A stretch of DNA of 64,000 nucleotides from NCBI GenBank assembly GCA_963851415.1, contig CAWKPF010000002.1, forward strand, positions 2,374,526-2,438,525. The letters run 5' to 3'. Under the pieces are notes generated by a model, which saw nothing but the letters and a program-made list of their open reading frames with translations, made no database searches and had not been told where the DNA came from. Source of the stretch: an uncultured Acidobacteriota bacterium (GTDB taxonomy: Bacteria; Acidobacteriota; Thermoanaerobaculia; Multivoradales; Multivoraceae). The position numbers and the translations under genes are program-made. Below, piece by piece: positions 16,400 to 62,974 of the stretch (position 1 is its first letter; each line of letters opens with the position of its first letter).

Positions 16400-16405
16400 A
16401 AAACG

Positions 16406-17611: not shown

Positions 17612-17715
17612 GGTGAATCCCGGGAGGGCGCTGGTATCCTGGCCGACGCTCCTCCGTCGTCCGGGAGCCCGTTCGCCCGGCTCCCTTCTCCACCAACGGA
17701 GCCTTCGAGGCAGCG

Positions 17716-19350: not shown

Positions 19351-20831
19351 GTGCACACATTCTTGTCATTGACGACGAGGCCAGCCTTCTGGAGTTCATC
19401 CGTCTCCTGTTCGAGGAACAGGGCTACCGGGTGACGACAGCGAACTCGGTCACGGACGCTCGAGCGAAGCTGGCTGGCGAGAGTTATGACCTGGTTCTCT
19501 GCGACATCATGATGCCCGACGGCAGTGGACTCGATCTCCTCCGTGAGATCAAGGATGTGGCGCATCGCACATCGGTCATCATGATGACCGCGTACACCTC
19601 GACGAAGTCGGCCATCGAAGCGATGAAGCTCGGCGCCTACGACTACGTCTCCAAGCCCTTCGACGTCGACGAGATGAAGGTGCTGGTCGAGAAGGCGCTG
19701 GAGAAGACCGAGCTCGTCGACGAAAACGTCTACCTCCGCCGCGAGCTTCAGCAGAAGTACACCTTCTCCAACATCATCGGAAGAAGCCGCAAGATGCAGG
19801 CCATCTTCTCCCTGATCGAGAAGGTCGCTCGGACCAACTCCACCATCCTGATTCACGGAGAAAGCGGCACCGGCAAGGAGCTCATCGCTCGTGCCGTTCA
19901 CTTCAACAGCCCACGCGCCAAACGTCGCTTCCTGTCGATCAACTGCGGCGCGCTGCCGGAGAACCTGCTCGAGAGCGAGTTGTTCGGCCACGAGCGCGGT
20001 GCATTCACGGGTGCCGTTCGCGAGAAGAAGGGACTCTTCCAGGAGGCCGACGGTGGAACGCTGTTCCTCGACGAGATCGGGGAAATGAGTCCGACCATGC
20101 AGGTCAAGCTCCTGCGCGCTCTACAGGACAAGACCGTTCGCAAGGTCGGAGGGAATCGCGAAGAGCGCGTCGACGTGCGCATCATCGCTGCGACCAATCG
20201 CGATCTTCTCGAAGCGATTTCGCAGAACGAGTTCCGAGAGGACTTGTTCTATCGCATCAACGTGATCCCGATCCAGCTTCCGCCGCTTCGCGAACGGCGA
20301 GAGGACATTCCGCTCCTCATCGACCATTTCGCCGCCCAGTACAGCGCCGAGATGCACGGGTCCGATCCCCCGGGTGAGAACCGGGCGCCGGCACCCCGCT
20401 TTTCCCACGACGCCATGCGCTCCCTGGAGAACTACGATTGGCCCGGCAACGTGCGTGAGCTGGAGAATCTGGTGGAGCGCTCGATCGCCCTCTCTTCGTC
20501 CGAAGTGCTGGAGAACGCGGATCTACCGGGGCATCTGCAGGGAGTCGAGGCCGGAACTCCGGACGGCATCTCCCTGCCGACCGACGGACTCGACCTCGAG
20601 CAGTACCTCGAAGGCATCCGATCGCATCTCATGTCCGAGGCCCTCGAGCGCACGAACTGGGTCCAGACCCAAGCGGCTGAGTTGCTGGGAATGAGCTTTC
20701 GCTCGTTCCGCTACTACGCCAAGAAGGCCGGGCTCACCGGGCGCAAGGAGAAGGCCGACGGAAACGGCCAGGAGGGCGACACCGACCCGGCGAACAACGG
20801 CGAGAACGAAAGGGCCGTGAGCGGCGGCTAG
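19347..20831 (+). CDS. pilR: sigma-54-dependent response regulator, PilR/NtrC family
   Basis: REC domain (DDEASL…LVLCDIMMPDGSG), AAA+ sigma-54 activation domain (GESGTGKE, GAFTGA, ESELFGHE) and C-terminal Fis-type HTH. Confidence 0.85.
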   Translation: MSAHILVIDDEASLLEFIRLLFEEQGYRVTTANSVTDARAKLAGESYDLVLCDIMMPDGSGLDLLREIKDVAHRTSVIMMTAYTSTKSAIEAMKLGAYDYVSKPFDVDEMKVLVEKALEKTELVDENVYLRRELQQKYTFSNIIGRSRKMQAIFSLIEKVARTNSTILIHGESGTGKELIARAVHFNSPRAKRRFLSINCGALPENLLESELFGHERGAFTGAVREKKGLFQEADGGTLFLDEIGEMSPTMQVKLLRALQDKTVRKVGGNREERVDVRIIAATNRDLLEAISQNEFREDLFYRINVIPIQLPPLRERREDIPLLIDHFAAQYSAEMHGSDPPGENRAPAPRFSHDAMRSLENYDWPGNVRELENLVERSIALSSSEVLENADLPGHLQGVEAGTPDGISLPTDGLDLEQYLEGIRSHLMSEALERTNWVQTQAAELLGMSFRSFRYYAKKAGLTGRKEKADGNGQEGDTDPANNGENERAVSGG

Positions 20832-29693: not shown

Positions 29694-31145
29694 TCAGAGG
29701 GTCGAAGCCGGCACCGGACCGCGCGGGACTGGTGTCTGGACACTCTTGCCGAGGAACTCTTCGTTGGTCGGGGGGGTCGCCCCACGCTCACGGGCGAGAC
29801 GCTGCTGCTTCTCGAGGAATCCGCGCAGCAGATCTTCTCGCTGAAGTCCCTGCAGCGCGACGACCTTCTCCCAGCTCGACTCTCGCACATGCGCCTCGAG
29901 TGTCTCCTCCTCGGAGGAAAAAAGGTGTTGGCCAAGCGTCACTACCCACTCGCCGGGCTCGACACCCGTGATACCCACGCTCTGGCGCCCCTCGGCGAGA
30001 ACCTCGACGGGGCGAAACTCGATCGGAAAGGCCTCCTCCGAGAGCTCGGCCGTTGCCACCGAGCCCAGATCCGCGGAGGTCACATCCGACGTCGGTGCCA
30101 AGCCAGAGACCGGACGACCCGACTCGGAGTAGCCCGCCGCCACGAAGACCCCGATCAATCCTGTCCTGGGGTCTTCCCAGAGAGCACTGGTCGGGACCAG
30201 GGTGGCTCGCTCGCTCTCGCCGTAGAGCACGTCGACCGTCACGAACATCCCGGGTCGGAGCGGACCATCGGTGTTCGCGACGTCGACCTCTCCGATGGTG
30301 CTGAAGCTGGTGGACTCGAGAAACGGCGAGATGCGTGACAACACTGCGCGCACACTGCCCTCGCCGAGAGACGAGGAGGAGATCTCGACTGGCAGCCCTT
30401 CGTCGATGTAGGCCAGCATTCCTTCGGTCAGGGGTACCTCGACGATGAGGGAGTTCAGATTGCCGATCTGGAAGAGCAGCGTGCCCGGGTCGACCAGCAT
30501 GCCGACCTCCACGTTGCGCTGCCCCACGCTGCCGGAGATCGGCGCGCGAACCAGGGTATCGGCGAGCTGAGAGCGCCGCTCCTGCACCGTTGCCTCGGCC
30601 TGCTGGACGCGAGCGCGGGCCGCCGCGGCAGACGCCTGGGTGGCCTGCAGCCGAGCTTCCTGGGTCTCGAGATCGACCTCACTGACCAGGTCCTGCTCCG
30701 CCAGAGCTCGGGTGCGCGTCACCTGGGCTTCGATTTCCGCCACTCGCGCCACGGCTTCCGCAGCGGAGGCTTCGGCCAATGCGACAGCCGCTTCGGCCTG
30801 ACGAAGCTGATCCTGGAGGGCATCGTCTTCGAGGCGCACCAGCGGCTGGCCAAACTCGACCAGCTGTCCGCTTCGAACCATGACCTCGAGCACGGGAGCA
30901 CTGATCTCCGGATAGATCGCCACCTGGTTCTCTGCCCGGACGACACCACTGAGGCGCTCCTGTAGCGGGAGTGCTCCGACCCTGGCCTGTACGATCTCGA
31001 CAGCGGGAATCGGACCCTGCTCGCGGTCTTCGAACGCTTCCTCAGACTCTCCGGAGCCGCAAGCCACCGTGCTCATGGCGATCGCTGCGACTGCGAGTGC
31101 CCAGCGCCTTTTCCAGAGCCGGCCCCCCGTCGTTTGACCCCGCAT
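29694..31145 (-). CDS. RND efflux periplasmic adaptor (membrane fusion protein)
   Basis: Signal/lipobox AIAMSTVACGSG, coiled-coil hairpin (LRQAEAAVALAE…ARLQATQASAAAARARVQQAEA) and biotinyl-lipoyl-like motif VRAPISGSV. Start trimmed to MRGQTTGG (31145). Confidence 0.8.
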   Translation of the reverse strand: MRGQTTGGRLWKRRWALAVAAIAMSTVACGSGESEEAFEDREQGPIPAVEIVQARVGALPLQERLSGVVRAENQVAIYPEISAPVLEVMVRSGQLVEFGQPLVRLEDDALQDQLRQAEAAVALAEASAAEAVARVAEIEAQVTRTRALAEQDLVSEVDLETQEARLQATQASAAAARARVQQAEATVQERRSQLADTLVRAPISGSVGQRNVEVGMLVDPGTLLFQIGNLNSLIVEVPLTEGMLAYIDEGLPVEISSSSLGEGSVRAVLSRISPFLESTSFSTIGEVDVANTDGPLRPGMFVTVDVLYGESERATLVPTSALWEDPRTGLIGVFVAAGYSESGRPVSGLAPTSDVTSADLGSVATAELSEEAFPIEFRPVEVLAEGRQSVGITGVEPGEWVVTLGQHLFSSEEETLEAHVRESSWEKVVALQGLQREDLLRGFLEKQQRLARERGATPPTNEEFLGKSVQTPVPRGPVPASTL

Positions 31146-31420
31146 CGAACTCACCTCCTCGAAATCAGACCGAGCGATCCTCCTCTGGGGGAAGGCCCGC
31201 TCCTGGGAACTTCTCCTATTTCTTCGATCCGGTACGCCGATCGGATGCCGGCGTACCCTTGAACCTACGCGATTTCCCAAAGGGCGGATGCAAGAAGCGT
31301 GTAAAACAGGTCCTGAGAGGGAGGCGCGAGCCGCCCGAGGCGGCCTCTAGCGGCAGCGACGGGCATGGGCCGCCGCGTGGCACGACGCACACTCTAGTAG
31401 TCTGCCCACCGGAGTTGCCC

Positions 31421-33835
31421 GTGGCCAGATTCAAGAAGAAGCGCGCCCAGAGCGCGTCTAGAAAGCGCAGCCCCTCCCCGAAGGCGCCCGAGCGCGCGAC
31501 CGAGCCCGAACGGCCCTCGGAGCCCTCGCCGAACCCGTGGCTCGCGGCCCTCGGTGTAGCGGCTCTCGTCGCCCTTCTCGTCCTGTCGACCGTCTGGCTC
31601 TCCCTCCGAGAAACCGGAGGCGCACAAGACCCATCGGAGCCGGCCGGCGCCGAGCCCCCGACCGAGGCGATCCGCGCCGAGGACCCGGCACGCGACTCCC
31701 ACGAGCGCATGCTGGCCGCGCTTCAGGAGATCCAACGCCGCACCGACACGGAGAACCCCTATCAGGGCACCTATCTCGCTCAACAAGCGCGCGCCGCCCT
31801 CGCGGCACTGCCCCCGGACGCCCCTGCCGGGTCTCGATTCAGGGCGCTGCGCGAGGCGGGGGACCACGAGCTTCGCCTGGGCAACGAGGCCGAAGCGATT
31901 GCTCGCTTCACCGAGGCCTACGAGCTGCTGCCCACCGCCGCTCCCGAGCTGTCGCGAGAGGAAGGACTCCGCCTCGTGTTCCGCCTGGGCCTCGCCCACC
32001 TGCGTTTCGGGGAAACCCGCAACTGCGCCCTCGATCACTCCGGCGAGAGCTGCATCCTGCCGCTCCGCGGCGGCGGCCTGCACCGCGAGCCCGAGGGCTC
32101 CCGCGAGGCGATGCGCTACTTCACCCAGGTCGCCGAGCTGGCGCCATCGGGCCATCCGATCTTCCTCAAGGCGATCTGGCTGCTCAACCTCGCCGCGATG
32201 ACCCTGGGCGAGCACCCCGATGGAGTGCCGCCCGAGCTGCTCATCCCACTGCCTCTGTATGGCTCCGACGCTGAACTGGTCCGCTTCGACAACGTGGCGC
32301 CGCATCTGGGGCTCGACACCTTCAACCTGTTCGGCGGCATGGTGGTAGATGACTTCACGGGCGACGACCTTCTCGACGTCGTCACCACGACCTTCGAGAC
32401 CTCCGGACAGATGCGCTTCTTTCGCAACGACGGGGACGGCACCTTCACCGACAGGACTCGCGAAGCCGGCCTCGAGGGGCTCTACGGCGGGCTCAACGTC
32501 CTGCAGGCCGACTACGACAACGACGGCGATCTCGACCTGTATGTGCTCCGTGGCGCCTGGCTCGAAGACGTCGGCCGACATCCCAATTCCCTGCTGCGCA
32601 ACGAGGGGGAGGGCCGTTTCGTCGATGTGACCTTCGCCGTGGGGCTGGGCCAGGAGCACTACCCGACCCAGACCGCCTCGTGGGCCGACATCGACAACGA
32701 CGGCGATGTCGATCTGTTCGTCGGCAACGAATCGAACGTCAAGCTGCCGGACGCACCCAGCCAGCTGTTTCGCAACGACGGCGAGAGCTCCGAAGATCGA
32801 CACTTCACCGAGATCTCGCTGTCCGCTGGGATCGACCACCGGAGTTTCGTCAAGGGAGTGGTCTGGGGAGACTACGACGGCGACCGCTTCCCTGACCTCT
32901 ACATCTCGACCCTGGGCGGCCCCAACCGACTGCTGCGCAACGACGCGAACGGACCGGGCGCCGATGCCACCTTCACCGACGTCACCGCCGAGCTCGGTGT
33001 CTCCGAGCCTCTCGATTCCTTCCCGGTCTGGTTCTGGGACTTCGACAACGACGGCTCCCTCGACCTCTACGTACCGAGCTACCGAGGCATCACCGATGCG
33101 GTCAGTGCGGTGGTGGCGAGCTACCTGGGACTCGAGCCGATTCTCGAGCTACCGCGCCTCTACCGTGGAAACGGCGAGGGCGGATTCGAGGAGGTCGCTG
33201 CTCGGAGCGGTCTCACGCGCATCCACATGCCGATGGGAGCCAACTTCGGCGACCTCGACAACGACGGCTTTCTCGACTTCTATCTCGGCACCGGCTACCC
33301 CGACTACGAGTCGCTCATGCCCAACGTCATGTACCGCAACGCCCAGGGACGACGCTTCGAGGACGTAACGCTCGCTGGGGGATTCGGCCACCTGCAGAAA
33401 GGCCACGCGGTGGCGTTCGCCGACTTCGATCAGGACGGCGACCAGGACGTCTTCGAGCAGATGGGAGGCGCCTTTCCCGGCGACCGATTTCACGACGCCC
33501 TGTTCGAGAACCCGGGATTCGGGAACCACTGGCTGAGCCTGCACCTCGTCGGAGAGCAGTCGAATCGCGCCGCGATCGGAGCCCGGATTCACGTCCGAAT
33601 CGAGGAAGCCGGCCGGGAGCGTTCCATCTACAAGCACGTCAACAGCGGTGGCAGCTTCGGCTCCAACCCCCTGCGCCAGACTCTCGGCCTCGGCCAGGCC
33701 TCTCGGATCCTCGAGCTCGAGATCTACTGGCCGACCAGCAATCTGACGCAGAGCTTCGAGGGAATCGAGCCAAATCGGCTCTATCGGGTCGTCGAAGGTC
33801 GAGACGGACTTCAGGAGCTGGCCTCGCTTCGATAG
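31421..33835 (+). CDS. CRTAC1-family protein (FG-GAP/VCBS beta-propeller repeats plus ASPIC/UnbV C-terminal domain) with N-terminal TM anchor and TPR-like region
   Basis: Repeated FRNDGDGTF / DYDNDGDLD / DIDNDGDVD / FDNDGSLD / DLDNDGFLDF calcium-binding FG-GAP motifs. C-terminal …WLSLHLVGEQSNRAAIGARIHV…NSGGSFGSNPLRQTLGLG… is UnbV/ASPIC. GTG start at 31421 with GGAG 6 nt upstream; the ORF-track 5' extension overlaps the adaptor gene on the other strand. Confidence 0.7.
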   Translation: MARFKKKRAQSASRKRSPSPKAPERATEPERPSEPSPNPWLAALGVAALVALLVLSTVWLSLRETGGAQDPSEPAGAEPPTEAIRAEDPARDSHERMLAALQEIQRRTDTENPYQGTYLAQQARAALAALPPDAPAGSRFRALREAGDHELRLGNEAEAIARFTEAYELLPTAAPELSREEGLRLVFRLGLAHLRFGETRNCALDHSGESCILPLRGGGLHREPEGSREAMRYFTQVAELAPSGHPIFLKAIWLLNLAAMTLGEHPDGVPPELLIPLPLYGSDAELVRFDNVAPHLGLDTFNLFGGMVVDDFTGDDLLDVVTTTFETSGQMRFFRNDGDGTFTDRTREAGLEGLYGGLNVLQADYDNDGDLDLYVLRGAWLEDVGRHPNSLLRNEGEGRFVDVTFAVGLGQEHYPTQTASWADIDNDGDVDLFVGNESNVKLPDAPSQLFRNDGESSEDRHFTEISLSAGIDHRSFVKGVVWGDYDGDRFPDLYISTLGGPNRLLRNDANGPGADATFTDVTAELGVSEPLDSFPVWFWDFDNDGSLDLYVPSYRGITDAVSAVVASYLGLEPILELPRLYRGNGEGGFEEVAARSGLTRIHMPMGANFGDLDNDGFLDFYLGTGYPDYESLMPNVMYRNAQGRRFEDVTLAGGFGHLQKGHAVAFADFDQDGDQDVFEQMGGAFPGDRFHDALFENPGFGNHWLSLHLVGEQSNRAAIGARIHVRIEEAGRERSIYKHVNSGGSFGSNPLRQTLGLGQASRILELEIYWPTSNLTQSFEGIEPNRLYRVVEGRDGLQELASLR

Positions 33836-45612: not shown

Positions 45613-47292
45613 ATGAGCACCTCGCCGAAGAGCCCTCTACTCGCCCTTTCGATCCTCGCCGCTGCCTGCGCTCCGGCCGAAGACACGGCCATCGGCACCG
45701 ACACGGGTGAGACCACGACCGCGATCGAGGTGATCTCCGACCAGGGAGAAGCTCTGGGATTCGTTGCCTTCCCTACCTCCTGCACGGAGGCTGCGCAGGT
45801 GGAGATCGAGCGCGGACTCGCCCTCCTCCACCACATGAACTACGTCAACGCCGAGCCCGTATTCCTGCGGGCTGCCGAGCTCGATCCCGAGTGCGCAATC
45901 GCCTACTGGGGTGCCGCGATGACCTACGTCCACCCGCTCTGGCCCGACACCATCTCTCCCGAGAATCGCGAAGCGGGCGAAGCCCTGCTCGCGCGCGCCG
46001 AGACCGCGGCGAACAAGAGCTCCCGAGAGGCCAAGTACGTGGCCGCACTCCAGGGCTACTACGAGGGAGCCGAGCGCAGCGAGCGCGAGCGCCTGGCGAG
46101 CTACCTCGCCGGCTACATGGTGCTGCACGCCGAGTACCCCGACGATCCGGAAGCGGCAGCATTCCACGCGCTGGGGCTGCTGGCGAATGCGCCGGCCGAA
46201 GACAAGACGTACGCGCTGCAGTCGGAAGCGGGTGAGATCCTCGAAGGTCTGCTCGCCCAGGTGCCGAAACACCCGGGCGGCCACCACTACACGATTCACG
46301 CCTACGACTTTCCGCCGCTCGCCGAACGCGCCCTCGACATTGCCCGCCGCTACGATGATCTGGCTCCGGAGAACACGCACGCGCTCCACATGACGAGTCA
46401 CATCTTCACGCGCCTCGGGCTGTGGCCAGAGTCGATCGAGTTCAACCTCCGTGCCGCCGAGGCCTCGAAGAAGCGCACCGCCTCGGGTCAGGTCTCGCTG
46501 CATCACCTGCACGCCTACGACTACCTGGCATACGCCTACCTGCAGCAGGCGCGCGACAACGCGGCCAACGAAGTGCTCGCCAAGCTCGAGGCACTCGAGC
46601 CACCCTTCCAGAATCACTCCGCCACCGCCTACACGTTTGCCGCGGTTCCCGCTCGGCTGGCACTCGAACGTCACGACTGGGCGAAGGCCGCGCAGGTCGA
46701 GACTCGGTGGCCGAGCGAGCTCGAGTGGGACCAGTACCCCTATCTCGACGCGATCCCGTACTTCGCCCGCGCCATGGGCGCAGCCCGCACCGGCAAACCC
46801 GACGCAGCTCGCCTGGCGATCGCCGAGCTCGGCCGACTCGAAGAAGCCGCCGGCAGTCTCGATATCGCCTACGACTGGGCGATCCAGGTGGCGATCCAGA
46901 AGACCGCGGCGCAGGCGTGGCTGGCCTACGAGTCGGGCGACGTCGAAGGCGGACTCGAGTTGGCGCGCAAGGCGGCGGCGATGGAAGGCTCGACCGAGAA
47001 GAACCCGGTGACGCCGGGCGAGGTCCTGCCCGCCCGCGAGCTCTACGGAGACATGCTGCTCGAGGCCGGACGGTACGAGGAGGCGGTGGCCGCCTACGAG
47101 CGGTCCCTCGAGCGCTCGCCCAACCGATTCAACAGCCTCTACGGCGCCGGCCGGGCCGCCGAGCTGGACGGCAACGTTGAAGGGGCGGCGCAGTTCTACG
47201 CTCAGTTGATCGAGGTTGCCGCCACGTCGGACAGCGACCGCGAAGAGCTCGAGCACGCGCATCAGTTTGTCGAGACCGCGTCGGCGGCCTGA
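45613..47292 (+). CDS. TPR-repeat lipoprotein, unknown function
   Basis: Signal/lipobox LLALSILAAACAP; GGAGG 7 nt upstream of the ATG at 45613. Several TPR-like helical pairs (e.g. …YEEAVAAYERSLERSPNRFNSLYGAGRAAELDGNVEGAAQFY…). Confidence 0.55.
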   Translation: MSTSPKSPLLALSILAAACAPAEDTAIGTDTGETTTAIEVISDQGEALGFVAFPTSCTEAAQVEIERGLALLHHMNYVNAEPVFLRAAELDPECAIAYWGAAMTYVHPLWPDTISPENREAGEALLARAETAANKSSREAKYVAALQGYYEGAERSERERLASYLAGYMVLHAEYPDDPEAAAFHALGLLANAPAEDKTYALQSEAGEILEGLLAQVPKHPGGHHYTIHAYDFPPLAERALDIARRYDDLAPENTHALHMTSHIFTRLGLWPESIEFNLRAAEASKKRTASGQVSLHHLHAYDYLAYAYLQQARDNAANEVLAKLEALEPPFQNHSATAYTFAAVPARLALERHDWAKAAQVETRWPSELEWDQYPYLDAIPYFARAMGAARTGKPDAARLAIAELGRLEEAAGSLDIAYDWAIQVAIQKTAAQAWLAYESGDVEGGLELARKAAAMEGSTEKNPVTPGEVLPARELYGDMLLEAGRYEEAVAAYERSLERSPNRFNSLYGAGRAAELDGNVEGAAQFYAQLIEVAATSDSDREELEHAHQFVETASAA

Positions 47293-47444
47293 GCGAGCGG
47301 CCCGTCGGGCGAGGGGTGCCGGCATCGGTTTCAGATCCGAGCCGTCGAGTCTGCAAACTCTTCAGGTGGCGCATCGCCCAAGCAGCTGTGTGGGCGGACG
47401 TGGTTATCGTCGGCATGTAGCCCACTCGTCGAGTGGGTGCTACC

Positions 47445-48179
47445 TCATGGCATCTGCCCGAGCAGGCCATCGACATCCTCTCTGATCGCCTCCGCCCACA
47501 GCTCGTAGCCGCGCTCGTTGAGGTGGAGGTAGTCGGGCATGAGGTCGGGGGAGGTGGTGCCGCCCTCGGTCAAGAAGACCTCACCGATGTCGAGGTAGTG
47601 AACCATCGATCCGTCTGCGAGCTCGACGAGCAATCGATTCGCGGCCTCGTTGTTGTGACGGAAGGGATCATCGCGCTCGCGGCCTCGCGGAAAGATGCCC
47701 AGAAGCAGGATCTTCGTTCCCGGGAGTCGCTCGCGCAGCTCACGCACGATCGCTTCGACCCCGTCCGCGATCTCCTGTGGTCCGTCCTTGCCGTGCTCGG
47801 AGTCGTTGGTGCCGATCAGCAGGACGATCAGCTTCGGCTCCAGACCGTCGAGGTGGCCCTGCTGGAGGCGCCACAGGACGTTCTCCGTCTGTTCCCAACC
47901 GACGCCGAGATTGAGCGCGCGGAGATGCCCGTAGTGCCGCTGCCACACCCGCTGACCGGCGGTTTCCCATTGGGCTGTGATCGAGTCGCCGAGAAACACG
48001 AGATCGGCCTCGGCCCCGCGAGCCCTCTCGACGAGCGCTTCGACTCGCTCCGGCTCGTGGCGGTTCGGCGCCGGCACTCCCGCACCGGGATCGGACGGGC
48101 GCTGACAGCCTCCGGCCATCAGGAGGATCGTCACGACCGTCGGCACCAGAGTGAGGCGACACGGCAAGAGCTTCTTCAC
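47445..48179 (-). CDS. SGNH/GDSL-family hydrolase lipoprotein
   Basis: Block I LVFLGDSIT, block III LLIGTNDS, block V DYLHLNERGY (DxxH). GTG start VKKLLPCRL with lipobox-like LMAGGC. Confidence 0.7.
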   Translation of the reverse strand: MKKLLPCRLTLVPTVVTILLMAGGCQRPSDPGAGVPAPNRHEPERVEALVERARGAEADLVFLGDSITAQWETAGQRVWQRHYGHLRALNLGVGWEQTENVLWRLQQGHLDGLEPKLIVLLIGTNDSEHGKDGPQEIADGVEAIVRELRERLPGTKILLLGIFPRGRERDDPFRHNNEAANRLLVELADGSMVHYLDIGEVFLTEGGTTSPDLMPDYLHLNERGYELWAEAIREDVDGLLGQMP

Positions 48180-48424
48180 TCTCGCGAGACTATGGCACCG
48201 GTCGCCGTCAGGGCAGCAAGGCGAACACGCCGGTGCACGGGAGTCTTCCGCCGGAACGCTGATTCTCTTCAACAATGCCATGCTCCACTTCGGTGGGAGA
48301 GTCGAGCCGGGAAGAGACCGACTGGTCGCGCGGGTCAGCTACCTCGAGTGACCTCGCTCACCTTTCTTTGGCCCCGCGAGGACGACGAGGCGAGCGCAGG
48401 GGCGGGCGGGCGGGCTCGCTCGCT

Positions 48425-48647
48425 CTCGAGCTCGTTGCCGAGATCCTCGGTGATGACGCGGCCATCGGTGAAAAGGCCGATGTCTCCGAGCATCGCCCTG
48501 CGGCGATCACCGAAGCCGGGAGCCGTGACCGCGACGACCTGCAGGATGCCACGCAGCCTGTTTGACCACGAGGGTGGCGAGAGCCTCGCCCTCAACGTCC
48601 TCGGCGAGGATCGCGACGGGACAACCCTGCTTGGCGACCTGCTCGCC
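48425..48647 (-). pseudogene. groEL: orphan internal fragment of a groEL (Hsp60) gene (apical-domain region, about 75 codons) with one frameshift
   Basis: Frame a: …[29 protein letters not shown]. Frame b: [43 protein letters not shown]. Compare E. coli GroEL …[69 protein letters not shown]. No N- or C-terminal GroEL sequence flanks it. Confidence 0.6.
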
Positions 48648-48896
48648 TGATGCGCAACGAGCCGTGGTACGCGCAGCGAGCGGGGCAAGATCCGGCCAGG
48701 AGATGGGTGAGTCTCCGCTCGAGAGGATCCGACGCACGGGTCCCGCTAAAAGGTATACGAATCCGGTGGTCTGAGCTCCAATCCATGGATTCTCGTCTGC
48801 GATCTCGGGCGCGCGGGATGAAGATGGCCTGCTTCCTCATCCAGACCGCCGAGATCCGAATCCGGCTCGGGGCTAGGCCCGTCCGACACTCTTTGT

Positions 48897-51461
48897 TTGG
48901 TGCCCATGTCACTCGATCAGACAGCCGCCGGCGCGAGCGGCCGCGAACCCGCTACGAAAACGAGCTTTCCCCGATACCTGGCGCTGGGCTTCCAGCTCGG
49001 GTTGTTTCTGATCCTGGTCTATCGATTCAACATCGACAGCCGGGCATTTCTGCATGTCGGGATCCTCGCCTTCTTCGGCTTCGCGGTTCACTACTTGCTT
49101 CCCTTCCGATTTCGGCTCCCGTTCTTCCTCTTTCTCTCGCTGATCTCGATCGAGCTGGTGCTGGGGTTTCAAGGGGAGAGATGGTCGCTCCCTGGGCTCG
49201 TGCAGGGGGCTTGGATCATCGGGATCGGTCTCGCTCTGATCGGTCTGGCTCACCTGCCGATCGCGTTCTCCATCCGAGTCGGATTGGTAGCGGCAGTGGC
49301 GGTCGTCCTCGCTTTTCTGCGCGCCAGCGACCTGGCCCTGCCATGGTCGACATCGATCTGGCCGATTCTGGCCTCGATGTTCATGTTCCGGCTGATCGTC
49401 TACATGTACGACCTCCGCCACGAGAAGTCGCCGGCGTCGTGGTCGACGCGCCTGTCGTACTTCTTCATGCTGCCCAACGTCTGCTTCCCGCTCTACCCGG
49501 TGGTCGACTATCAGGCATTTCGGCGCACCTACTACGACAAAGCGGACCGACACCAGATCTACCAGGTCGGAGTGAAGTGGATGGTGCGCGGAGTCGTGCA
49601 CCTGTTGCTCTATCGGCTGGTCTACCAGAATCTGGTCCTCGATGCCGACGACGTGAAAACCGCGGGAGATCTCCTGCAGTATCTGTTCTGGCCCTTCCTG
49701 CTGTACCTCCGGGTCTCGGGCTACTTCCACATCATTGTCGGGATGCTGCACCTGTTCGGCTTCAATCTGGCCGAGACCCACCATCTCTACTATCTGGCTT
49801 CGAGCTTCACCGACTTCTGGCGCCGCATCAACATTCCGTGGAAGGACTTCATGATGAAGATCTTCTACTACCCGGTGTACTTGAGGATCAAGAGTTGGGG
49901 AAGCACGACCGCCCTCGTGGTCACCACTCTGTTCGTCTTTCTGATGACGTGGATCCTCCATGCCTATCAGTGGTTCTGGATCCGCGGCACGTTCCTGCTC
50001 ACCTGGAACGATGGGCTGTTCTGGGCTGCTCTGGGACTGTTGGTCGTAGGGGCATCTCTGTACGAGGTGAAGTACGGTCGCAAACGCCGACTCGCGGGAA
50101 GCTCGATGTCGTGGCGTGAGGCGATGCCGATCGCACTGGGCGCGATCGTGGTGTATTGCACCATCTCCTTGCTGTGGTCCTTCTGGAGCGCTCACTCGGT
50201 CGGAGAGTGGTTGTCGGCATGGCGAGCTCTAGGGCATTGGGAGCTGTCCGATCTTCCGGCCGTCGTCATCGGTCTGGCCGTTCTCACGGCGATCGGAGTC
50301 GGCTCCGCGATGGATGCGCGGGGGGTCATCGAGCGCCCTTTCAGCTTTTCGAGGTCCTTCGCCGGAGTGGTCGCGGGGGCCGCGATCCTGCTCGGGATGA
50401 CGCTGCCCGTGGTGACGGAGGGACTGTCTCCCCGCGGCCGAGAGATCGTTACCGATCTCAGGGCCTCAGAGCTCAACTCGCGAGATTTCGAGAAGCTCGA
50501 GCGCGGCTACTACGAGAACCTGATCGATGTCGGGAGCTTCAATCCGGAGCTCTGGGAGGTGTATCGGACGCGGCCCGCTGATTGGCGCAATCTCCGCGAC
50601 ACGGACGCCGTGTTCTACACGGACGGATTTCCGTGGTACGAACTGCGGCCCGATAGCGAGACCCGCCACAACGGCGCCCTGGTGCGGACCAATCGGTGGG
50701 GGATGCGCGATCGCGACTACGAGAAGGTGCCCGCGGAAGGGGTCACGCGAATCGCTATCGTCGGAAGCTCGTTCGTGTTCGGCTCGGGGGTCGAGAACGA
50801 AGAGATCTTCGAGAGTCTGCTCGAGACGCGTCTGAACTCCTCCCGCAGCTCGAGTGAGGTTGCCTACGAAGTGCTCAACTTCGGTGTTGCCGGCTACGCT
50901 CCCCTCGAGCATCTGGAGGTGATCAAGGAGCGAGCCCTCGAGTTCGAGCCGGAGGTCCTCCTGTACGTGGAGCATGCCGATAGCGGGAACAACGTCGTGA
51001 TCCAACTGGTCGCGACGATGCAACGGGGGATCCGGCCCGCCTACGACTATCTCGACGACATCATTGCCCGGGCCGGGATCGACGAAACGACGATCGATCA
51101 ATCGAGCGATCCGAACGTTCTCAAGGCGAAGTTGGGCCCCTACCAGGAGGAGTTGCTTGCCGGGCTCTATCAGCGGATGGTCGAGGCCTGTCGCGAAGAC
51201 GGTGTCACCCCCGTGTGGGTCTACCTCCCTCGACCGGAAGAGACCGAGCGGGGCGGACCGCCCGAGCCCGAGACGCGGCTCGCTCGCGAGGCTGGATTCG
51301 AGTTGCTCGACCTGACGGGTGTCTACGGGGAGGGAGATCTCGGGGAGCTCTGGATCGCCCGCTGGGATCACCATCCGAATGCCGAGGGTCACCGGCGGAT
51401 CGCCGAGGGTCTCTACCGAATGCTCGAGGAGAGGGAGCTGCTCGATTCGGTCGAGCAGTGA
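48897..51461 (+). CDS. MBOAT-family membrane O-acyltransferase (DltB/AlgI-like) fused to a C-terminal periplasmic SGNH-like (DltD/AlgJ/AlgX-like) domain
   Basis: About 11 TM helices. FTDFWRRINIPWKDFMMKIFYYPVYL aligns with the AlgI/DltB FWRRWHISLSxWxRDYxY motif (His not obviously conserved at that position). C-terminal 380 aa are soluble with IAIVGSSFVFGSGVENEE… (SGNH block-I-like) and …WDHHPNAEGHRRIAEGLY (DxxH-like). Confidence 0.7.
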   Translation: MVPMSLDQTAAGASGREPATKTSFPRYLALGFQLGLFLILVYRFNIDSRAFLHVGILAFFGFAVHYLLPFRFRLPFFLFLSLISIELVLGFQGERWSLPGLVQGAWIIGIGLALIGLAHLPIAFSIRVGLVAAVAVVLAFLRASDLALPWSTSIWPILASMFMFRLIVYMYDLRHEKSPASWSTRLSYFFMLPNVCFPLYPVVDYQAFRRTYYDKADRHQIYQVGVKWMVRGVVHLLLYRLVYQNLVLDADDVKTAGDLLQYLFWPFLLYLRVSGYFHIIVGMLHLFGFNLAETHHLYYLASSFTDFWRRINIPWKDFMMKIFYYPVYLRIKSWGSTTALVVTTLFVFLMTWILHAYQWFWIRGTFLLTWNDGLFWAALGLLVVGASLYEVKYGRKRRLAGSSMSWREAMPIALGAIVVYCTISLLWSFWSAHSVGEWLSAWRALGHWELSDLPAVVIGLAVLTAIGVGSAMDARGVIERPFSFSRSFAGVVAGAAILLGMTLPVVTEGLSPRGREIVTDLRASELNSRDFEKLERGYYENLIDVGSFNPELWEVYRTRPADWRNLRDTDAVFYTDGFPWYELRPDSETRHNGALVRTNRWGMRDRDYEKVPAEGVTRIAIVGSSFVFGSGVENEEIFESLLETRLNSSRSSSEVAYEVLNFGVAGYAPLEHLEVIKERALEFEPEVLLYVEHADSGNNVVIQLVATMQRGIRPAYDYLDDIIARAGIDETTIDQSSDPNVLKAKLGPYQEELLAGLYQRMVEACREDGVTPVWVYLPRPEETERGGPPEPETRLAREAGFELLDLTGVYGEGDLGELWIARWDHHPNAEGHRRIAEGLYRMLEERELLDSVEQ

Positions 51462-51524
51462 GGACTTGGTTCGTACCTGAGCGAAGCAGAACGTTCGAAT
51501 TCAAAACGCAGCGAAGGAGTCAGA

Positions 51525-51794
51525 ATGTCAAATGCGCAGACGACCGTTCACCAGAAGGTGAAAGACTTCATCCTCAAGGAGTTCCTCCCCGGTGAGAGCC
51601 CCGAGAACCTGACCGACGATACTCCGCTGGTTACCGGGGGGATTCTCGATTCTCTCGCGACCCTCAAACTGGTCGCGTTTCTCGAGGAGACCCAGGGGAT
51701 CAAGGTCGAAGCTCACGAGATGGGCGCCGACAACTTCGATTCCGTGAACACGATCGCCGCGTACGTGGGCTCCAAGTCCGAGGCCGCTGGGTAA
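51525..51794 (+). CDS. D-alanyl-carrier-protein (DltC)-like small carrier protein
   Basis: 89 aa; GGILDSLATLKLVAFLEE matches the DltC phosphopantetheine-attachment motif GLLDSFGTVELL. Confidence 0.75.
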   Translation: MSNAQTTVHQKVKDFILKEFLPGESPENLTDDTPLVTGGILDSLATLKLVAFLEETQGIKVEAHEMGADNFDSVNTIAAYVGSKSEAAG

Positions 51795-51803
51795 ACCTCC
51801 ATC

Positions 51804-53366
51804 GTGCCGAAGAACGGACTTCATCGCCCGCTTTCGCTGTCTGCGCAGCGTGTTCCCGACCGGCTGGCTGTCTCGGATCCGAGTCGGGGCCGGACGATCA
51901 GCTACAAGGAGTTGGACTCTCTCTCCGATCGTCTGCGCGACCGGCTGCGGGCGATCGGCGTCGTGCCTGGGGACCGGGTCGGAATCTGCCTGGGCAAATC
52001 GATCAGCAGCGTCGCCTCGGTGTTCGGAATCCTCAAGGCCGGCGGCGGCTATGTGCCGGTCGACTCCACGGCTCCGCCAGAGCGCAACGCGTTCGTCTTC
52101 AGCAACTGCGAGGTCGCGGCGGTGCTCGTGGAGGAGCGTTTCGAGGAGGCACTACGGCAGGAGCTTTCGACAGCGGGGAGCACGCCTCCGTTGTTGGTGC
52201 TTCAGACCGAGACGGAAGAGGACCCCCTGCGGGCAGCTCTCGACCGGGCGGACCAGGAGAGTGCGGCCGAGCCCGTGCCTACGTTCGAGGCCGAGCCCGG
52301 CGACCTGGCCTACATCCTCTATACCTCGGGTTCGACGGGAAAGCCGAAGGGCGTGACTCTGTCGCATGAGAACGCGACCTCTTTCGTCGAATGGTGCTCA
52401 GAGGTCTTCTCGCCTCGTGAAGACGATCGGTTTTCCTCGCATGCGCCTTTTCACTTCGACCTCTCGATCCTCGATCTCTACCTTCCGATTCGACACGGCG
52501 CCTCCATCCACCTGATCGGCGAGCAGCTCGGAAAGAACCCGGCGGGCATGGTGCAGCTCCTGTCAGAGGCCGACCTGACGGTCTGGTACTCGACCCCTTC
52601 CGTGCTCAGATTGATGCTCGAGCATGGAGGTCTGGCGGATCTCGAGAGCCACTCTCTTCGCTACGTGCTCTACGCTGGCGAGGTCTTTCCGGTCAAGCAC
52701 CTCAGAGAGCTGGCGAGAGTCGTCACGGGGCCTCGCTATTTCAACCTCTACGGCCCGACGGAGACCAACGTCTGTACCTATCACGAGACACCTGCGATCG
52801 TGCCTGATGAGCGTTCGAAGCCCTATCCGATCGGCAGGGTTTGCTCCCACCTGCGGGCGCGAGTGGCCGACGAGGACGGGAAGCCCGTTGCCGTTGGCGA
52901 AGAGGGAGAGCTCCAGATCTCGGGCCCAGCGGTCTTGCAGGGGTACTGGAACCAGCCGGAACGGACCGCCGCCGCTTTCATCGAGGACGACACGGGAAGG
53001 TGGTACCGGACGGGTGACCTCGTCATCGAAGACGAAGAGCGGGTCTACACCTTCGTGGGGCGACGGGATCGTATGGTGAAGCGGCGCGGGTACCGCATCG
53101 AATTGGGCGAGATCGAGGCCGCCTTCTACCGGCATCCCGAGATCTCCGAGGCCGCAGCGGTGGCGGTGTCGGATCAAGAGGGGGTCACCATCAAGACCTT
53201 CTACTCGACCCGCGAGGGCACACCGCTCTCGATGATCGAGCTCAAGCGTTTCTGCGCGGCGCGTCTGCCGATGTACATGATCCCGGACCGGTTTACGCAC
53301 CTGGAGGTTCTCCCAAAGACCTCGACCGACAAGATCGACTATCAGCTTTTGAAAGAGGTCGAATAA
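51804..53366 (+). CDS. DltA-like adenylation enzyme (AMP-dependent synthetase/ligase, carrier-protein ligase)
   Basis: AMP-binding motif LAYILYTSGSTGKPKGV; YRTGDLV…; 520 aa, same length class as DltA or stand-alone NRPS A-domains. Start is 10 nt after the carrier gene. Confidence 0.8.
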   Translation: MPKNGLHRPLSLSAQRVPDRLAVSDPSRGRTISYKELDSLSDRLRDRLRAIGVVPGDRVGICLGKSISSVASVFGILKAGGGYVPVDSTAPPERNAFVFSNCEVAAVLVEERFEEALRQELSTAGSTPPLLVLQTETEEDPLRAALDRADQESAAEPVPTFEAEPGDLAYILYTSGSTGKPKGVTLSHENATSFVEWCSEVFSPREDDRFSSHAPFHFDLSILDLYLPIRHGASIHLIGEQLGKNPAGMVQLLSEADLTVWYSTPSVLRLMLEHGGLADLESHSLRYVLYAGEVFPVKHLRELARVVTGPRYFNLYGPTETNVCTYHETPAIVPDERSKPYPIGRVCSHLRARVADEDGKPVAVGEEGELQISGPAVLQGYWNQPERTAAAFIEDDTGRWYRTGDLVIEDEERVYTFVGRRDRMVKRRGYRIELGEIEAAFYRHPEISEAAAVAVSDQEGVTIKTFYSTREGTPLSMIELKRFCAARLPMYMIPDRFTHLEVLPKTSTDKIDYQLLKEVE

Positions 53367-54515
53367 ATGAACCTGGACTTGACCAAAGAACAAGTCGCCC
53401 TTGCGGGCGAGATTCGTCGTTTTGCTCGCGAAAGGCTCAATGAGGGTGTCCTCGAGCGCGATCGAGAGCAGACTTTCTCCCGAGAGCTCTGGAAGGAGTG
53501 CGGTGAGATGGGTTTGACCGGCCTTCCCGTTCCGATCGAGTACGGGGGGACCGGGTTGGATCCGCTGTCGACTGCCGTTGCGCTGGAGGCCTTGGGTCAC
53601 GGTTGCGAGGACTCCGGACTGGTCTTCTCCATCTGCGCCCATTTGCTCGCCTGCGCGGTGCCAATCTGGAAGTACGGGACCGACGAGCAGAAGGGCAGAT
53701 ACCTTCCGGGGCTTTGCGACGGAACCCTCATCGCGGCCAACGCGATGACCGAGCCCGACTCGGGCTCCGACGCCTTTGCACTCCGAACTCGTGCCGAGCG
53801 AGACGGCGACGGCTACCGGCTCAACGGCACCAAGATCTTCGTGACCAATGGCCCGGTGGCCGATCTGGCTCTGGTGTTCGCGGTGACGGACCCCGAGAAG
53901 GGTTATCACGGAGGCATCACTGCCTTCGTGGTGGATGCCGACACCGAGGGTTATCGCAAGGGCCAGCAGTTCGAGAAGCTCGGTCTGCGAACTTCTCCCA
54001 ACGGAGAGCTGTTCTTCGAAGACATGTATCTTCCCCCGACGGCGGTGCTCGGTGGCGAGGGAGGAGGATCCCAGGTCTTCGTCAGCGCGATGGAGTGGGA
54101 GCGAGGTTGCCTGTTCGCCAGCCACGTGGGCACCATGGAGCGGCTGCTCGAGAAGGCCATCGAGTATGCACGCACTCGGAAGCAGCAGGGCCAGACCATC
54201 TCGAAGTTCCAGGCCGTCTCCCACAAGATCTCGGACATGAAGATCCAACTCGAAGCGGCGCGACTGCTCACCTACAAGTCCGCATGGAACCTCGAGCGGT
54301 CGAGGAGGGTGTCTTTGGACGCTGCCATCTCGAAGACCTTCGTCAGCGAATCGTTGGTACGGAGCGCGCTCGACACCATTCAAGTGTTCGGGGGCTACGG
54401 GTTTCTCGCCGAATACGAGATCGAGCGCACCCTGCGCGACTCGGTGGGAAGCACGCTGTACTCGGGCACTTCGGAGATCCAACGCAACATCATTGCCGGC
54501 TGGCTCGGGCTGTAG
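53367..54515 (+). CDS. acyl-CoA dehydrogenase family flavoenzyme
   Basis: 382 aa with ACAD N/M/C domains (…GLTGLPVPIEYGGTGLD…, …AANAMTEPDSGSDAFALRT…, …QVFGGYGFLAEYEIERTLRDS…). Start ATG directly abuts the ligase stop (TAAATG). Confidence 0.85.
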   Translation: MNLDLTKEQVALAGEIRRFARERLNEGVLERDREQTFSRELWKECGEMGLTGLPVPIEYGGTGLDPLSTAVALEALGHGCEDSGLVFSICAHLLACAVPIWKYGTDEQKGRYLPGLCDGTLIAANAMTEPDSGSDAFALRTRAERDGDGYRLNGTKIFVTNGPVADLALVFAVTDPEKGYHGGITAFVVDADTEGYRKGQQFEKLGLRTSPNGELFFEDMYLPPTAVLGGEGGGSQVFVSAMEWERGCLFASHVGTMERLLEKAIEYARTRKQQGQTISKFQAVSHKISDMKIQLEAARLLTYKSAWNLERSRRVSLDAAISKTFVSESLVRSALDTIQVFGGYGFLAEYEIERTLRDSVGSTLYSGTSEIQRNIIAGWLGL

Positions 54516-58978: not shown

Positions 58979-60190
58979 GGTAGCGGATCGCGGAGATCGG
59001 ACGGATGTAGTCGTACCAGCCCTTGATGCCCCAGGCGGCGATCGCCACGTCGTGCATCGCGCCGCCGAGCATGAGGTAGACCTTCACGTCCCACTCGAGG
59101 TCGTCGAGCGATCGGCCCCGTCCCGCCGATGCGCTTCTCGACGAGCGGATGATCGGTGACGTAGTTGGCGATCGTGAACCAGTGCCCGGGCGGCGTCTCG
59201 GAGTCCGGGCCGTCGGCCCAGAACTCGGCGAGCACGCGCGCGTAGTCGCCGCGCGGGCACGATCTGCGGCGTGTAGGGCTGGCCGGTCACCGGGTTCACG
59301 GGTAGCCCGTGCCCCAGTCGCCGCCGTCCTCGAAGTCGTAGTAGGCCGCCAGTCGCCCGGATCCGGCAGCGGGCGTTGCCGATCGAGGCGGGCGAGATGT
59401 CGATCATCACGCCGTCGGTCGGGTCGAGGTGGCCGACTCCAGACGACGCCGACCATGCTCGAAGCCGTCCAGGTAGTCGTCGCCGTCGGCGGCCGAGCAG
59501 CGGCGGCGGCCCCGGATCGTGGTAGACCCAGTAGTCGAAGCCGTCGCGCGTGGTAGATCGTCAGGTCGTCGGGCGTCGAGCGCGAACGGCGTCGACCTGG
59601 CCCCACTCCGGGACTCAGGAATGGCGGGAAGCCGCCGGGGATCGGGTTGCCGCACTGGTCGATGAAGAAGTCGAGCGCGAGCGGCTGCCAGCGGTTCGGA
59701 TCGACCAGGTCCGGGTTGCCGGGCAGCGCCGGCGAGCAGCGGCGGGTTGACCGGCTCGTAGTACAGGTTCGCGTAGCCGTTCGGCCTCGTTCGAGCCGTC
59801 GGCGAGGCCGAACGCGATGCACGGCCGCGGCGATGCGGTTGCCGAGCGCCGCGGGCGGTCGCGTCGCCCGCGGTCGTCGTGAATCGCGTGTCGTAGCCGA
59901 GCTCGGCCATCCGATCGTCGCACGAGACGGCAGTGATACGCGCGCCCGGCGAGCTCGCGAAGCGGCAGCTCAGGATGCGGTAGGCCGCGTAGCTGATCGC
60001 CTCTTCGCGGGCCGCCGGCACGTCCGCCGCCGTGGCGCTCTCGTCGTGGAGGATCGTGGTCGGCCGTGCCGTCGTAGGCCGCCCAGGCGTCCCACATCGC
60101 CACCGAGACGTGGAAGAGGTTGCGCGCGTGCACCGTCGGCCGCGCGAAGTCGCGGCGGATCGCCGTCGAGCAGCTCCTCGTTCCACTGCC
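57527..60190 (-). pseudogene. PAP2/vanadium-haloperoxidase-like gene whose 5' two-thirds (58500-60200) is scattered over at least 4 reading frames
   Basis: Real-looking haloperoxidase pieces in different frames: ARNLFHVSVAMWDAWAAYDG (59615-60445 frame), YANLYYEPVNPPL (59407-60186 frame), LDDLEWDVKVYLMLGGAMHDVAIAAWGIKGWYDYIRPISAIRYHG (58638-59822 frame), LAEFWADGPDSETPPGHWFTIANYVTDHPLVEKR (58705-59235 frame). Confidence 0.45.
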
Positions 60191-62974
60191 GGGCGACGGA
60201 ACCCTCGGTCTCGACGGCGAAGTACGACACGACCAGCTGAGGTCGGGACGCGGAATCGGCGGCCTCGCCAGGATAGTAGCTGACGAAGTCGGTGAGGTTG
60301 TCGTCATCGTCATCGATCTCGAAGTAGACCCGCATCTGGGTCGTGCCGGTGCGACTGATGGCGGACAGACCGAGAAGATCGAGCGTGGCTTCGGACCAAT
60401 CACCGTTGGCCGAGGCCGAGGAGAGAACCGCCGCTCGCGGCGCATCCGCAGCAGCCTGGAAGTCGGAGGCCTGAAGGGCCGGATTCCCGCTGAAGCCGCC
60501 CGTCTTCACGTCGACATAGGCAGTGCCATGCGTAGTGAACGGATCGGACCCCCCGGATCCGCCGCGCTGGATTCGCAGGACCGCAGACTCGATCACCGCT
60601 CCTGCGGGTAGCACGGACGTGTCGAACGAGAACACGGCGACGGTCTGACGGTCCTCGTTGTCGTCGCCGATCCGAATCGCGCCACCGCCCGACAGGCTCT
60701 GGTTGAAGACCCCTCCGACGCCGCTGTCCTCGCTCGACTCGAAGACCCTTCCGTCCTCGGTACCGATCGACAGCAACGTCTTCTCGATCGTCTCACCCGT
60801 CGGAACGGTCACGTCGATGATCACGGAGTCCTCGGCCAGATTGCCGTCGCCATCGACCACCGATGCGGTGATCTCGTGCGTGCCTTCGGTCAGCGACACG
60901 GAGAGGTTGCCCCCGATGCCGAGATCGCCGTCGCGATCGGAGGTCCAAAGAATGCTCCCCGCCAGATTACCGTCCTCTGTATCGCTGGCAGTGCCGGCGA
61001 AGTCGATGAGCGTGCCGGTCGTGGAGGTCGAACCATCCGCAGGGGAGGTGATCGTCACCGTGGGAGGAAAGCCCCCCGCCGGAGTGACCACGAGATTGAC
61101 CGCGGCCTGCCCGACATTGCCGTCGATGTCGGTGACGGAGGCGAGGATCACATGCGCGCCCTCCGACAGCACCGCCGAAAAGCTGCCTCCCGAACCGATG
61201 GCTCCGTCGAGGCTCGACGTCCACGTGAGATCGCTCGAAAGATCGCCCTCGTCGGGGTCGTCGGCACTGCCCTCGAAGTCGATCAGATCGCCCGCCATGA
61301 ACAGCGCACCCTGGCTCGGCTGGACGATGGTGACCACCGGCAGCTCGGCAACCTCCTGCACCGTGTAGACCTGGTTCACTGCGACGCCGACCAGCGAGGT
61401 GTCCACCAATCCGCTCGGCCAGAAGACCTCGACCAGATCGACCACTGCCGCATCGCCGAGGCCGAACGACAGCCGCAGGCTGTCCTGGGAGTGCGCGCTG
61501 CTGCCACCCAGCACCTGCCGCACGTATTGATTGCCACCGGCAGTGACGCGGACCAGAGCGCCAATGGCGCTCCTGTTCGAAGCGCCCGGAGTCCCAGCGC
61601 CCTGGAGATCGAACTGCACCCAGTTGTTGGTCGGCGCGGTGTCGTTGCGCAGAAGCTGAACCGTTCTTCCATGTTGCACGACGATGATGTCGACATCTCC
61701 GTCCCGGTCGTAGTCGGCAATCGCGCTTCCTCGACCCTGGCTCCCGCTTCGACTGGGAATCCCGACCTTGGTGAACGTACCGTCACCATTGTTCCGGAAC
61801 AGGTCGTTGGACCCTGAAGCGATCCGCGACACGAAGAGGTCCTCGTACCCGTCGCTGTCCACATCCACGAAGTTCGCCCCCCACGACTTGGCGGACGCGA
61901 TCCCACGATCACAGGCCGAGTCGTCCGCGAAAAGGATGCTGGCGCCACCGAGATTCTCGTACAAGGCGTTCGTGCCGCCGCAGGAGTTCAGCGGCTCCCA
62001 ATCCGTGACGTAGACATCGAAGTCGCCGTCGAGGTCGATGTCCCCGATGGTGAGCCCCATCGCGAAGCGGGAGTCGTTACCGACGCCTAGCGAGTCGCCG
62101 GCCACGTCCAGGAATCCTGTTCCGTTCTGGTTCTCGAAGATCTGGTCCTGATCCTGGGGCGTGATGTTGCCCACGTAGACATCGGGCCAAAGGTCGGAGT
62201 TCAGGTGGCCCGCGATCGTCACCAGAGCATCCCGGATGATCAAATCGAGACCGACCTGCGTCGAGACATCCTCGAACTGGCCGTTGCCGAGATTGCGAAA
62301 GAGTCGGTCCTGCACCCAGGGACTGTTGTTGCCCTCATTCCAGTGCCCGACGTAAAGGTCGACGTAGCCGTCGCGATCGTAGTCGAGCCAGTTGGCGCTG
62401 ACCGAGACGTACGACGGGCCATCCGGCAACGGGGACGGCAACAGATCATCGACCCCGGCCGCCGCGGCGACCTCCTCGAACAGGGGCTCCCCCGGGATCA
62501 CCTGATGTCCGTTTTCCACCCAGAGGTTGCGCAGCAGCTGATTCGGAGGCGAGCCGTTGCCCTTTTTGGTCCCTTGGACGGGCACCGCAACGTAGATGTA
62601 GATGTCCTGATCACCGTCGTTGTCGTAGTCGGCAAAGACAGAGCCCATCATCTCGATCGCGGGGTCCAGCGGCAGCAGCTCGTCCACATTGGTGAAGGTG
62701 CCGCCGTCGTTGCGGAACAGGTGATACGGCATATTCGTGGTGCGTCCATGCCGTTGACCGCGAACAGGTCGTCCCAGCCGTCGTTGTTGAAGTCGATCCA
62801 GTTCAATCCGAGGCCGTGGAAGGACTCGGCGACGAACACGTATCCATTCAGACCCTGTGCGGCGGTCTGATCCGTCAGGACGATCGCGGGGCTTTGCGCC
62901 GCGAGCGGGGCCACGAGCCCGACGGTAAGGATCAGAATCAGCAACGGCTCGATCATCTCTCTCTGCGATCTCAT
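60190..62974 (-). CDS. very large secreted CRTAC1-like multidomain protein (FG-GAP/VCBS propeller, ASPIC/UnbV, three Ig-like domains, ~170-aa beta-sandwich domain); frameshift near 62735; possibly continuous with the haloperoxidase-like gene downstream
   Basis: Signal MRSQREMIEPLLILILTVGLVAPLAAQS (ORF 62648-63133) ending …NNDGWDDLFAVNGMDAP, then frame switch to MPYHLFRNDGGTFTNV… (ORF 59970-62732). Repeated D(Y/F)DxDGxxD motifs; ASPIC/UnbV block …SNRSAIGALVRVTAGGNQYVRQVLGGSSAHSQDSLRLSFGLG…; Ig-like repeats …SSLDGAIGSGGSFSAVLSEGAHVILASVTDIDGNV…. The domain …LLSIGTEDGRVFESSEDSGVGGV…MRVYFEIDDDDDNLTDFVSYYPGE…PQLVVSY also occurs in 57527-58978. Confidence 0.55.

Follow-up and report, generated by a model that had tools for sequence, protein, structure and literature searches.

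A short, frameshifted groEL fragment, probably a non-functional relic, beside a four-gene cassette in an acidobacterial chromosome

The intergenic region between a GDSL/SGNH hydrolase gene and a four-gene cassette contains an internal piece of a groEL gene. It lies on the minus strand, from position 48647 down to ~48424–48419 of the 64-kb stretch of DNA analysed here (the window), and corresponds to residues ~238–311 of GroEL, in the apical domain, distributed over two reading frames. The groEL match is 222 nt long, and the gene is cut sharply at both ends. The groEL identity of the piece, its truncation and frameshift, the replacements at conserved sites, the sharp edges and the native-like composition are all observed. 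We consider it likely that the piece is a non-functional groEL relic produced by illegitimate recombination at the cassette boundary. The features of the region are listed in Table 1.

Identity and condition of the groEL piece

A tblastn search of the window with E. coli GroEL returned two collinear segments in different frames with a joint E of 4e-19. GroEL residues 238–265 aligned to window positions 48644–48561 with 21 of 28 residues identical, and residues 265–310 aligned to 48562–48425 with 29 of 46 identical. The query served purely as a probe. Its numbering is consistent with that of the published binding-site residues L234, L237, L259, V263 and V264. A profile built from 269 GroEL pieces gave 40.3 bits for the N-terminal frame and 81.8 bits for the C-terminal frame, 122 bits in all. 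At the DNA level, window positions 48645–48424 aligned over 222 nt to the groEL gene (350–2022) of a groES-groEL operon on the JGI metagenome contig Ga0370355_1121665 (L093), with 176 identities (79%), an E of 4e-52 and one 1-nt gap. A chance likeness to GroEL is refuted by these three measures taken at the protein, profile and DNA levels. Because the L093 alignment contains this single gap, the frame change can be assigned to an extra A in the AAA run at 48561–48563: the piece reads GTC AA[A] CAG G where L093 groEL reads GTC AAC AAG. The preliminary description had reported two minus-strand GroEL peptides here, about 220 nt collinear with GroEL ~235–310 and separated by a 1-nt frame change. 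Both peptides can be read directly from the sequence at the stated coordinates, and the frame change comes down to the one surplus base.

Table 1. Features in and around the groEL piece (window coordinates).
Feature	Position	Strand	Observation
GDSL/SGNH hydrolase gene, lipoprotein-like signal	47445..48179 (start uncertain, 48179 to 48281)	-	Pfam PF13472, 111.5 bits
Non-GroEL intergenic part, GDSL side	48180..48418	.	GC by phase 0.69/0.71/0.61, no coding-type periodicity
(GGGC)4 microsatellite	48400..48415	+	Tandem Repeats Finder: period 4, 4 copies, 100% matches
C-terminal half of groEL piece	48419..48562	-	GroEL ~265-311/312; bears K277T, K286R, A293G, L295F
AAA run with extra base	48561..48563	-	Sole gap in the 222-nt alignment: GTCAA-CAAG vs GTCAAACAGG
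N-terminal half of groEL piece	48564..48647	-	GroEL ~237-264: end of helix H and helix I, apical domain
Non-GroEL intergenic part, cassette side	48648..48905	.	GC by phase 0.62/0.70/0.57
Four-gene cassette	48906..54515	+	Family scans; groEL piece just outside left edge

The best identity of the fragment to any GroEL was 76% over 74 residues in a search of 5.8 billion clusters and 1.84 billion representatives, and the mean identity between GroELs of different lineages over the same region is 77%. The neighbouring proteins of the window are at best 50–82% identical to others, and the genome has no close sequenced relatives. Since the best match lies near the inter-lineage mean in a genome so isolated, most of the divergence of the fragment may reflect lineage rather than decay. 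The replacements at conserved columns, as judged from the aligned GroELs, are not lineage-like. Conservation reaches at least 95% at 35 columns, and at four of these the fragment deviates (Table 1); 252 real GroEL pieces compared at the same columns show a mean of 0.59 deviations, with only 2 of the 252 reaching four. Position 277, a threonine in the fragment, is lysine in 269 of 269 GroEL sequences. Further differences are G297D, K245C, L247V and L248A. Taken together, the one frameshift and the four unusual residues argue modestly for decay.

A degenerate DNA pattern covering the 13-residue stretch with the T277 and R286 combination had no match in 241 million metagenome records or in viral contigs. 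The odd residues are thus not the mark of a living paralogue family, and this explanation was rejected, the best protein matches being ordinary GroEL pieces at no more than 76% identity. The N-terminal half has no GroEL start codon in its frame. Against Pfam Cpn60_TCP1 (PF00118), with its cut-off of 34.3, the stitched peptide reaches 11 bits, and the raw frames give no match. The eight ORFs over the piece that were tested were absent on exact look-up in a collection of 15 billion proteins, in which six proteins of the window are present (an AhpC-like protein, a TPR protein, the 851-aa membrane protein, carrier protein and dehydrogenase of the cassette, and PilC). The GC content by codon position within the piece (0.71–0.86, 0.39–0.44 and 0.83–0.86) follows the pattern of a native gene, with a third-position value that compares with 0.79–0.87 in the neighbouring genes; this periodicity is missing from the remainder of the intergenic region. 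The piece thus originated in this genome or in another of similar composition.

Edges of the piece and its neighbourhood

The similarity to GroEL stops at the edges of the piece. A GroEL profile search at maximum sensitivity over all six frames of 47700–49400 recovered the core and nothing beyond it. Flank peptides in the three minus-strand frames on both sides aligned to the GroEL consensus no better than shuffled sequences (P ~0.12 to 0.9), and 150 nt of DNA from each flank proved dissimilar to the stretches of L093 groEL that should correspond to it. The view that nothing GroEL-like flanks the fragment is thus upheld by the profile, the shuffle-controlled peptide and the DNA comparisons alike. 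An upstream 11-residue resemblance to the GroEL motif ISSMKDLLPLLE (ISWPDLAPL / SMKDLLPL) was dropped, as 242 of 2000 shuffles equalled it. Elsewhere in the 64-kb window, tblastn with E. coli GroEL found no other groEL, and tblastn with two GroES sequences found no groES (best E 0.096). A full groEL would need ~710 nt more on each side, room that is taken by the GDSL gene on the left and by the gene for the 851-aa membrane protein on the right.

Searches at the edges revealed no microhomology or duplication, and there were no direct or inverted repeats bracketing the piece and no target duplication. Neither a transposase nor an integrase was found among the 20 neighbouring proteins scanned. 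The (GGGC)4 run sits 9 nt past the 3′ edge of the piece and is, from its sequence, a possible site of slippage or illegitimate recombination. On the minus strand this run is preceded by (GAGC)-type repeats.

The GDSL gene shares the strand of the groEL piece and follows it downstream. The hydrolase appears intact, with a full-length Pfam match. Exact look-up of the protein from each of 13 possible starts showed it to be absent from the 15-billion collection, where both of its neighbours are present; the source annotation may have missed the gene or classed it as a pseudogene. The intergenic region has a single AT-richer stretch, at 48745–48760 (GCTAAAAGGTATACGAA), which lies outside the groEL piece and is a candidate for the promoter of the cassette, judged by composition and position. 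The cassette promoter therefore need not overlap the piece. A promoter for the cassette had been expected in the space that the fragment occupies; the fragment does lie between the GDSL gene on the minus strand and the cassette on the plus strand, but it need not itself be that promoter. No sigma-70 consensus promoter was matched in the intergenic region, and the sole terminator-like site nearby is a weak one at 48346–48359 on the plus strand. Neither Rfam families nor group II introns were detected in 47000–50000. Compared with shuffled sequences, the plus-strand RNA of the piece has a fold of only marginal stability (z = -2.1) and the minus-strand RNA an ordinary one (z = -0.35).

The first gene of the cassette encodes an 851-aa polytopic membrane protein (48906–51461, plus strand) with a weak C-terminal SGNH/GDSL match. 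Its membrane half (48906–50400) has no Pfam match even at E ≤ 1 and no NCBIfam match. The label "MBOAT" given earlier to this right-hand neighbour is thus not confirmed by either collection, and the protein may have an MBOAT-like fold. The carrier protein matches best to "ACP_for_OlsHI" (114.9 bits, cut-off 130) and then to DltC, and the amino-acid adenylation enzyme is DltA-like, with TIGR01733 above its cut-off. The dehydrogenase is closest to the PigA/RedW prolyl-carrier-protein dehydrogenases (460 bits, cut-off 500). The layout is Dlt-like, to which the cassette adds the prolyl-PCP-dehydrogenase-like enzyme.

The cassette recurs at 34 genome loci with 35–68% identity and variable gene order, in at least seven phyla; the host groups are Acidobacteriota, Gemmatimonadota, Eisenbacteria, Planctomycetota, Rhodothermales, Calditrichaceae and Proteobacteria. 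This patchy spread among phyla suggests that the cassette has probably been acquired or has moved. Conservation spans ~48900 to ~54500, and everything to the left of the cassette is not conserved. Neither the groEL piece nor the GDSL neighbour occurs at any of the 34 cassette loci.

Origin of the piece

The piece combines homology to a functional family with truncation and a disrupted frame, the features by which a relic is recognised. The earlier proposal of a decayed groEL remnant or insertion is supported in that the fragment is internal to the gene, truncated on both sides, frameshifted and replaced at near-invariant sites. As groEL is normally essential, the piece must descend from a surplus copy or from foreign DNA. 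From this picture we infer a lack of function, a link to cassette insertion and an order of events that could have followed either of two courses. Illegitimate recombination would have taken place at the boundary between the resident chromosome, on the GDSL side, and the four-gene cassette. An extra groEL copy could have stood here and then been deleted or overwritten on both sides; alternatively, a short piece of groEL DNA could have been captured at the junction. The two histories fit equally well, with the sharp edges leaning slightly toward capture. A more specific form of the latter, in which ~220 bp of groEL DNA of resident or foreign origin became filler in the repair of a double-strand break or in the integration of the cassette, is one that we entertain tentatively. 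It would account for the sharp edges, with 79% nucleotide identity inside and none outside, and for flanks that have no gradient of degenerate GroEL similarity; the position of the piece at the cassette boundary and the (GGGC)4 run close to one edge are also in its favour. However, two deletions trimming a gene in situ would look identical, and neither microhomology nor duplication was found at the edges. Against the relic reading as a whole, no mobile-element gene, flanking repeat or target duplication was found that would explain the rearrangement, and the best protein match, at 76%, is no lower than the inter-lineage average of 77%. The piece may mark where the scattered four-gene cassette joined a Thermoanaerobaculia-like chromosome, and it could help to date the rearrangement if compared with the genome's own groEL genes.

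It is very unlikely that the island arose by misjoining of groEL reads into the intergenic region. In two Logan runs (ERR12037369 and ERR15459714), contigs that encode identical neighbouring proteins stop at ~46775 and restart at ~49845, so that the stretch with the groEL piece has not been seen in an independent contig. This gap falls at the same positions in both runs; it spans the GDSL gene and the groEL piece and runs into the 5′ part of the membrane-protein gene. Within 46300–50300 no repeats were found that would explain the contig breaks; strain variation or a repeat elsewhere could be responsible for them. A chimeric join, however, would produce one breakpoint and not a 222-nt island with unrelated DNA on either side. 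Moreover, the extra base and the four near-invariant replacements show that the island does not copy an intact groEL, its residue combination is absent from the 241 million metagenome records, and it lies inside a 4.74-Mb contig. Misassembly is unlikely because of this geometry, the non-intact sequence and the interior position.

Retention of the piece for a function, either as a small apical-domain peptide or as an antisense RNA to groEL mRNA, is similarly improbable. A peptide would have to be made by frameshifting or from a 117-aa ORF (48688–48335). The piece does cover helix I and retains L259, V263 and V264, the GroES/substrate-binding residues in the numbering of established GroEL structure work. 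On the plus strand the piece folds slightly more stably than shuffled sequences do, and its position upstream of the cassette could suit a leader. On the other hand, the N-terminal half lacks an in-frame start codon that has a ribosome-binding site, the frameshift does not fall at any known slippery heptamer, and a small protein with the same residues is absent from the 5.8 billion clusters and 1.84 billion representatives. For an RNA, there is no Rfam match, promoter consensus or convincing terminator, and the minus-strand fold is ordinary. No conservation of the piece was found in other genomes. Two bolder proposals are hardly to be credited: that the piece is kept as a plus-strand leader RNA of ~220 nt antisense to groEL mRNA, or that it is a datable scar of integration of the cassette into a groEL paralogue. 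An antisense leader, if real, would couple envelope-modification genes to chaperonin expression.

Comparison with known systems and genomic context

Aligned with GroEL/Cpn60 (PF00118), the fragment is gap-free over ~238–311 except for the frameshift. It shares 68% of its residues with E. coli GroEL and as many as 76% with metagenomic GroELs, and it keeps the sequence APGFGDRR and a 15-residue motif. It differs from these proteins in having only 74 of ~545 residues, without the equatorial and intermediate domains, in lacking a start, a stop and a groES of its own, in its broken frame and in scoring below the Pfam gathering threshold. Thus it resembles a functional chaperonin in sequence similarity, for ~238–311 of GroEL only, and departs from one in length, reading frame, invariant residues, family threshold and groES partner, the last being usual but not obligatory.

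Pseudogenes are known in prokaryote chromosomes, where one account describes them as rare (PMC11229322), and nearly 30% of bacterial genomes have duplicate groEL genes by a published estimate (PMC3578752). Like other bacterial pseudogene fragments, the piece has recognisable homology, truncation, a frameshift, possible signs of relaxed constraint and no recorded gene under any tested start; unlike them, it is unusually short and has clean edges on both sides. It is an unannotated fragment, most likely a relic of a kind that is ordinary in bacterial genomes, and in this respect a small point of annotation. The broader lesson is that short intergenic matches to chaperonins should not be annotated as chaperonin genes.

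A likeness to the frameshift-split groEL gene calls of error-prone assemblies is also evident, since the database matches to the stitched peptide are mostly ORFs of 80–137 aa from the same region. The short ORF of L093, however, has the remainder of groEL and groES next to it, whereas the flanks of the fragment are free of GroEL. The groEL gene of L093, which follows groES, is broken into three ORFs. The protein matches nearest to the fragment are short ORFs that result from frameshifts inside full groEL genes in error-prone assemblies, and the short "GroEL" proteins of large databases are mostly such artefacts.

The group II intron EcKTE56.groEL is inserted at the groEL stop codon (PMC12584367). 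As a mobile element tied to groEL it offers a partial parallel, in that it could in principle scatter groEL-adjacent sequence. An origin of this type was rejected: the intron targets the 3′ stop codon (PMC12584367), whereas the fragment comes from the middle of the gene, and no group II intron was found in 47000–50000.

Related genes elsewhere were compared for their surroundings. No groEL was found near GDSL homologues at 58 metagenome loci, whose neighbours differ. Homologues of the 559-aa TPR protein, whose gene (window 45613–47292) adjoins the GDSL gene, are 72–75% identical in four contigs (L094–L097); these loci contain no groEL and share with the window only the queried gene. Since the neighbours of the TPR and GDSL relatives all differ, the local gene order is not conserved. 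As the TPR-homologue contigs show, local gene order in the lineage of the window is highly fluid.

In its wider content the window resembles an ordinary chromosome, with type IV pilus genes, an RND efflux pump and a gamma-glutamyltranspeptidase. The type IV pilus block (15290–20831) encodes a PilT-like ATPase, PilC, a PilS-like kinase and a PilR-like sigma-54 activator, and its PilC is 75–82% identical to proteins of named Acidobacteriota/Thermoanaerobaculia MAGs. Together with other proteins, PilC assigns the window to Acidobacteriota, close to Thermoanaerobaculia, as its likely lineage. Finally, two large FG-GAP/ASPIC-UnbV repeat proteins (CRTAC1-like) are encoded on opposite strands at 30971–33835 and 59970–62732, less than 30 kb apart.
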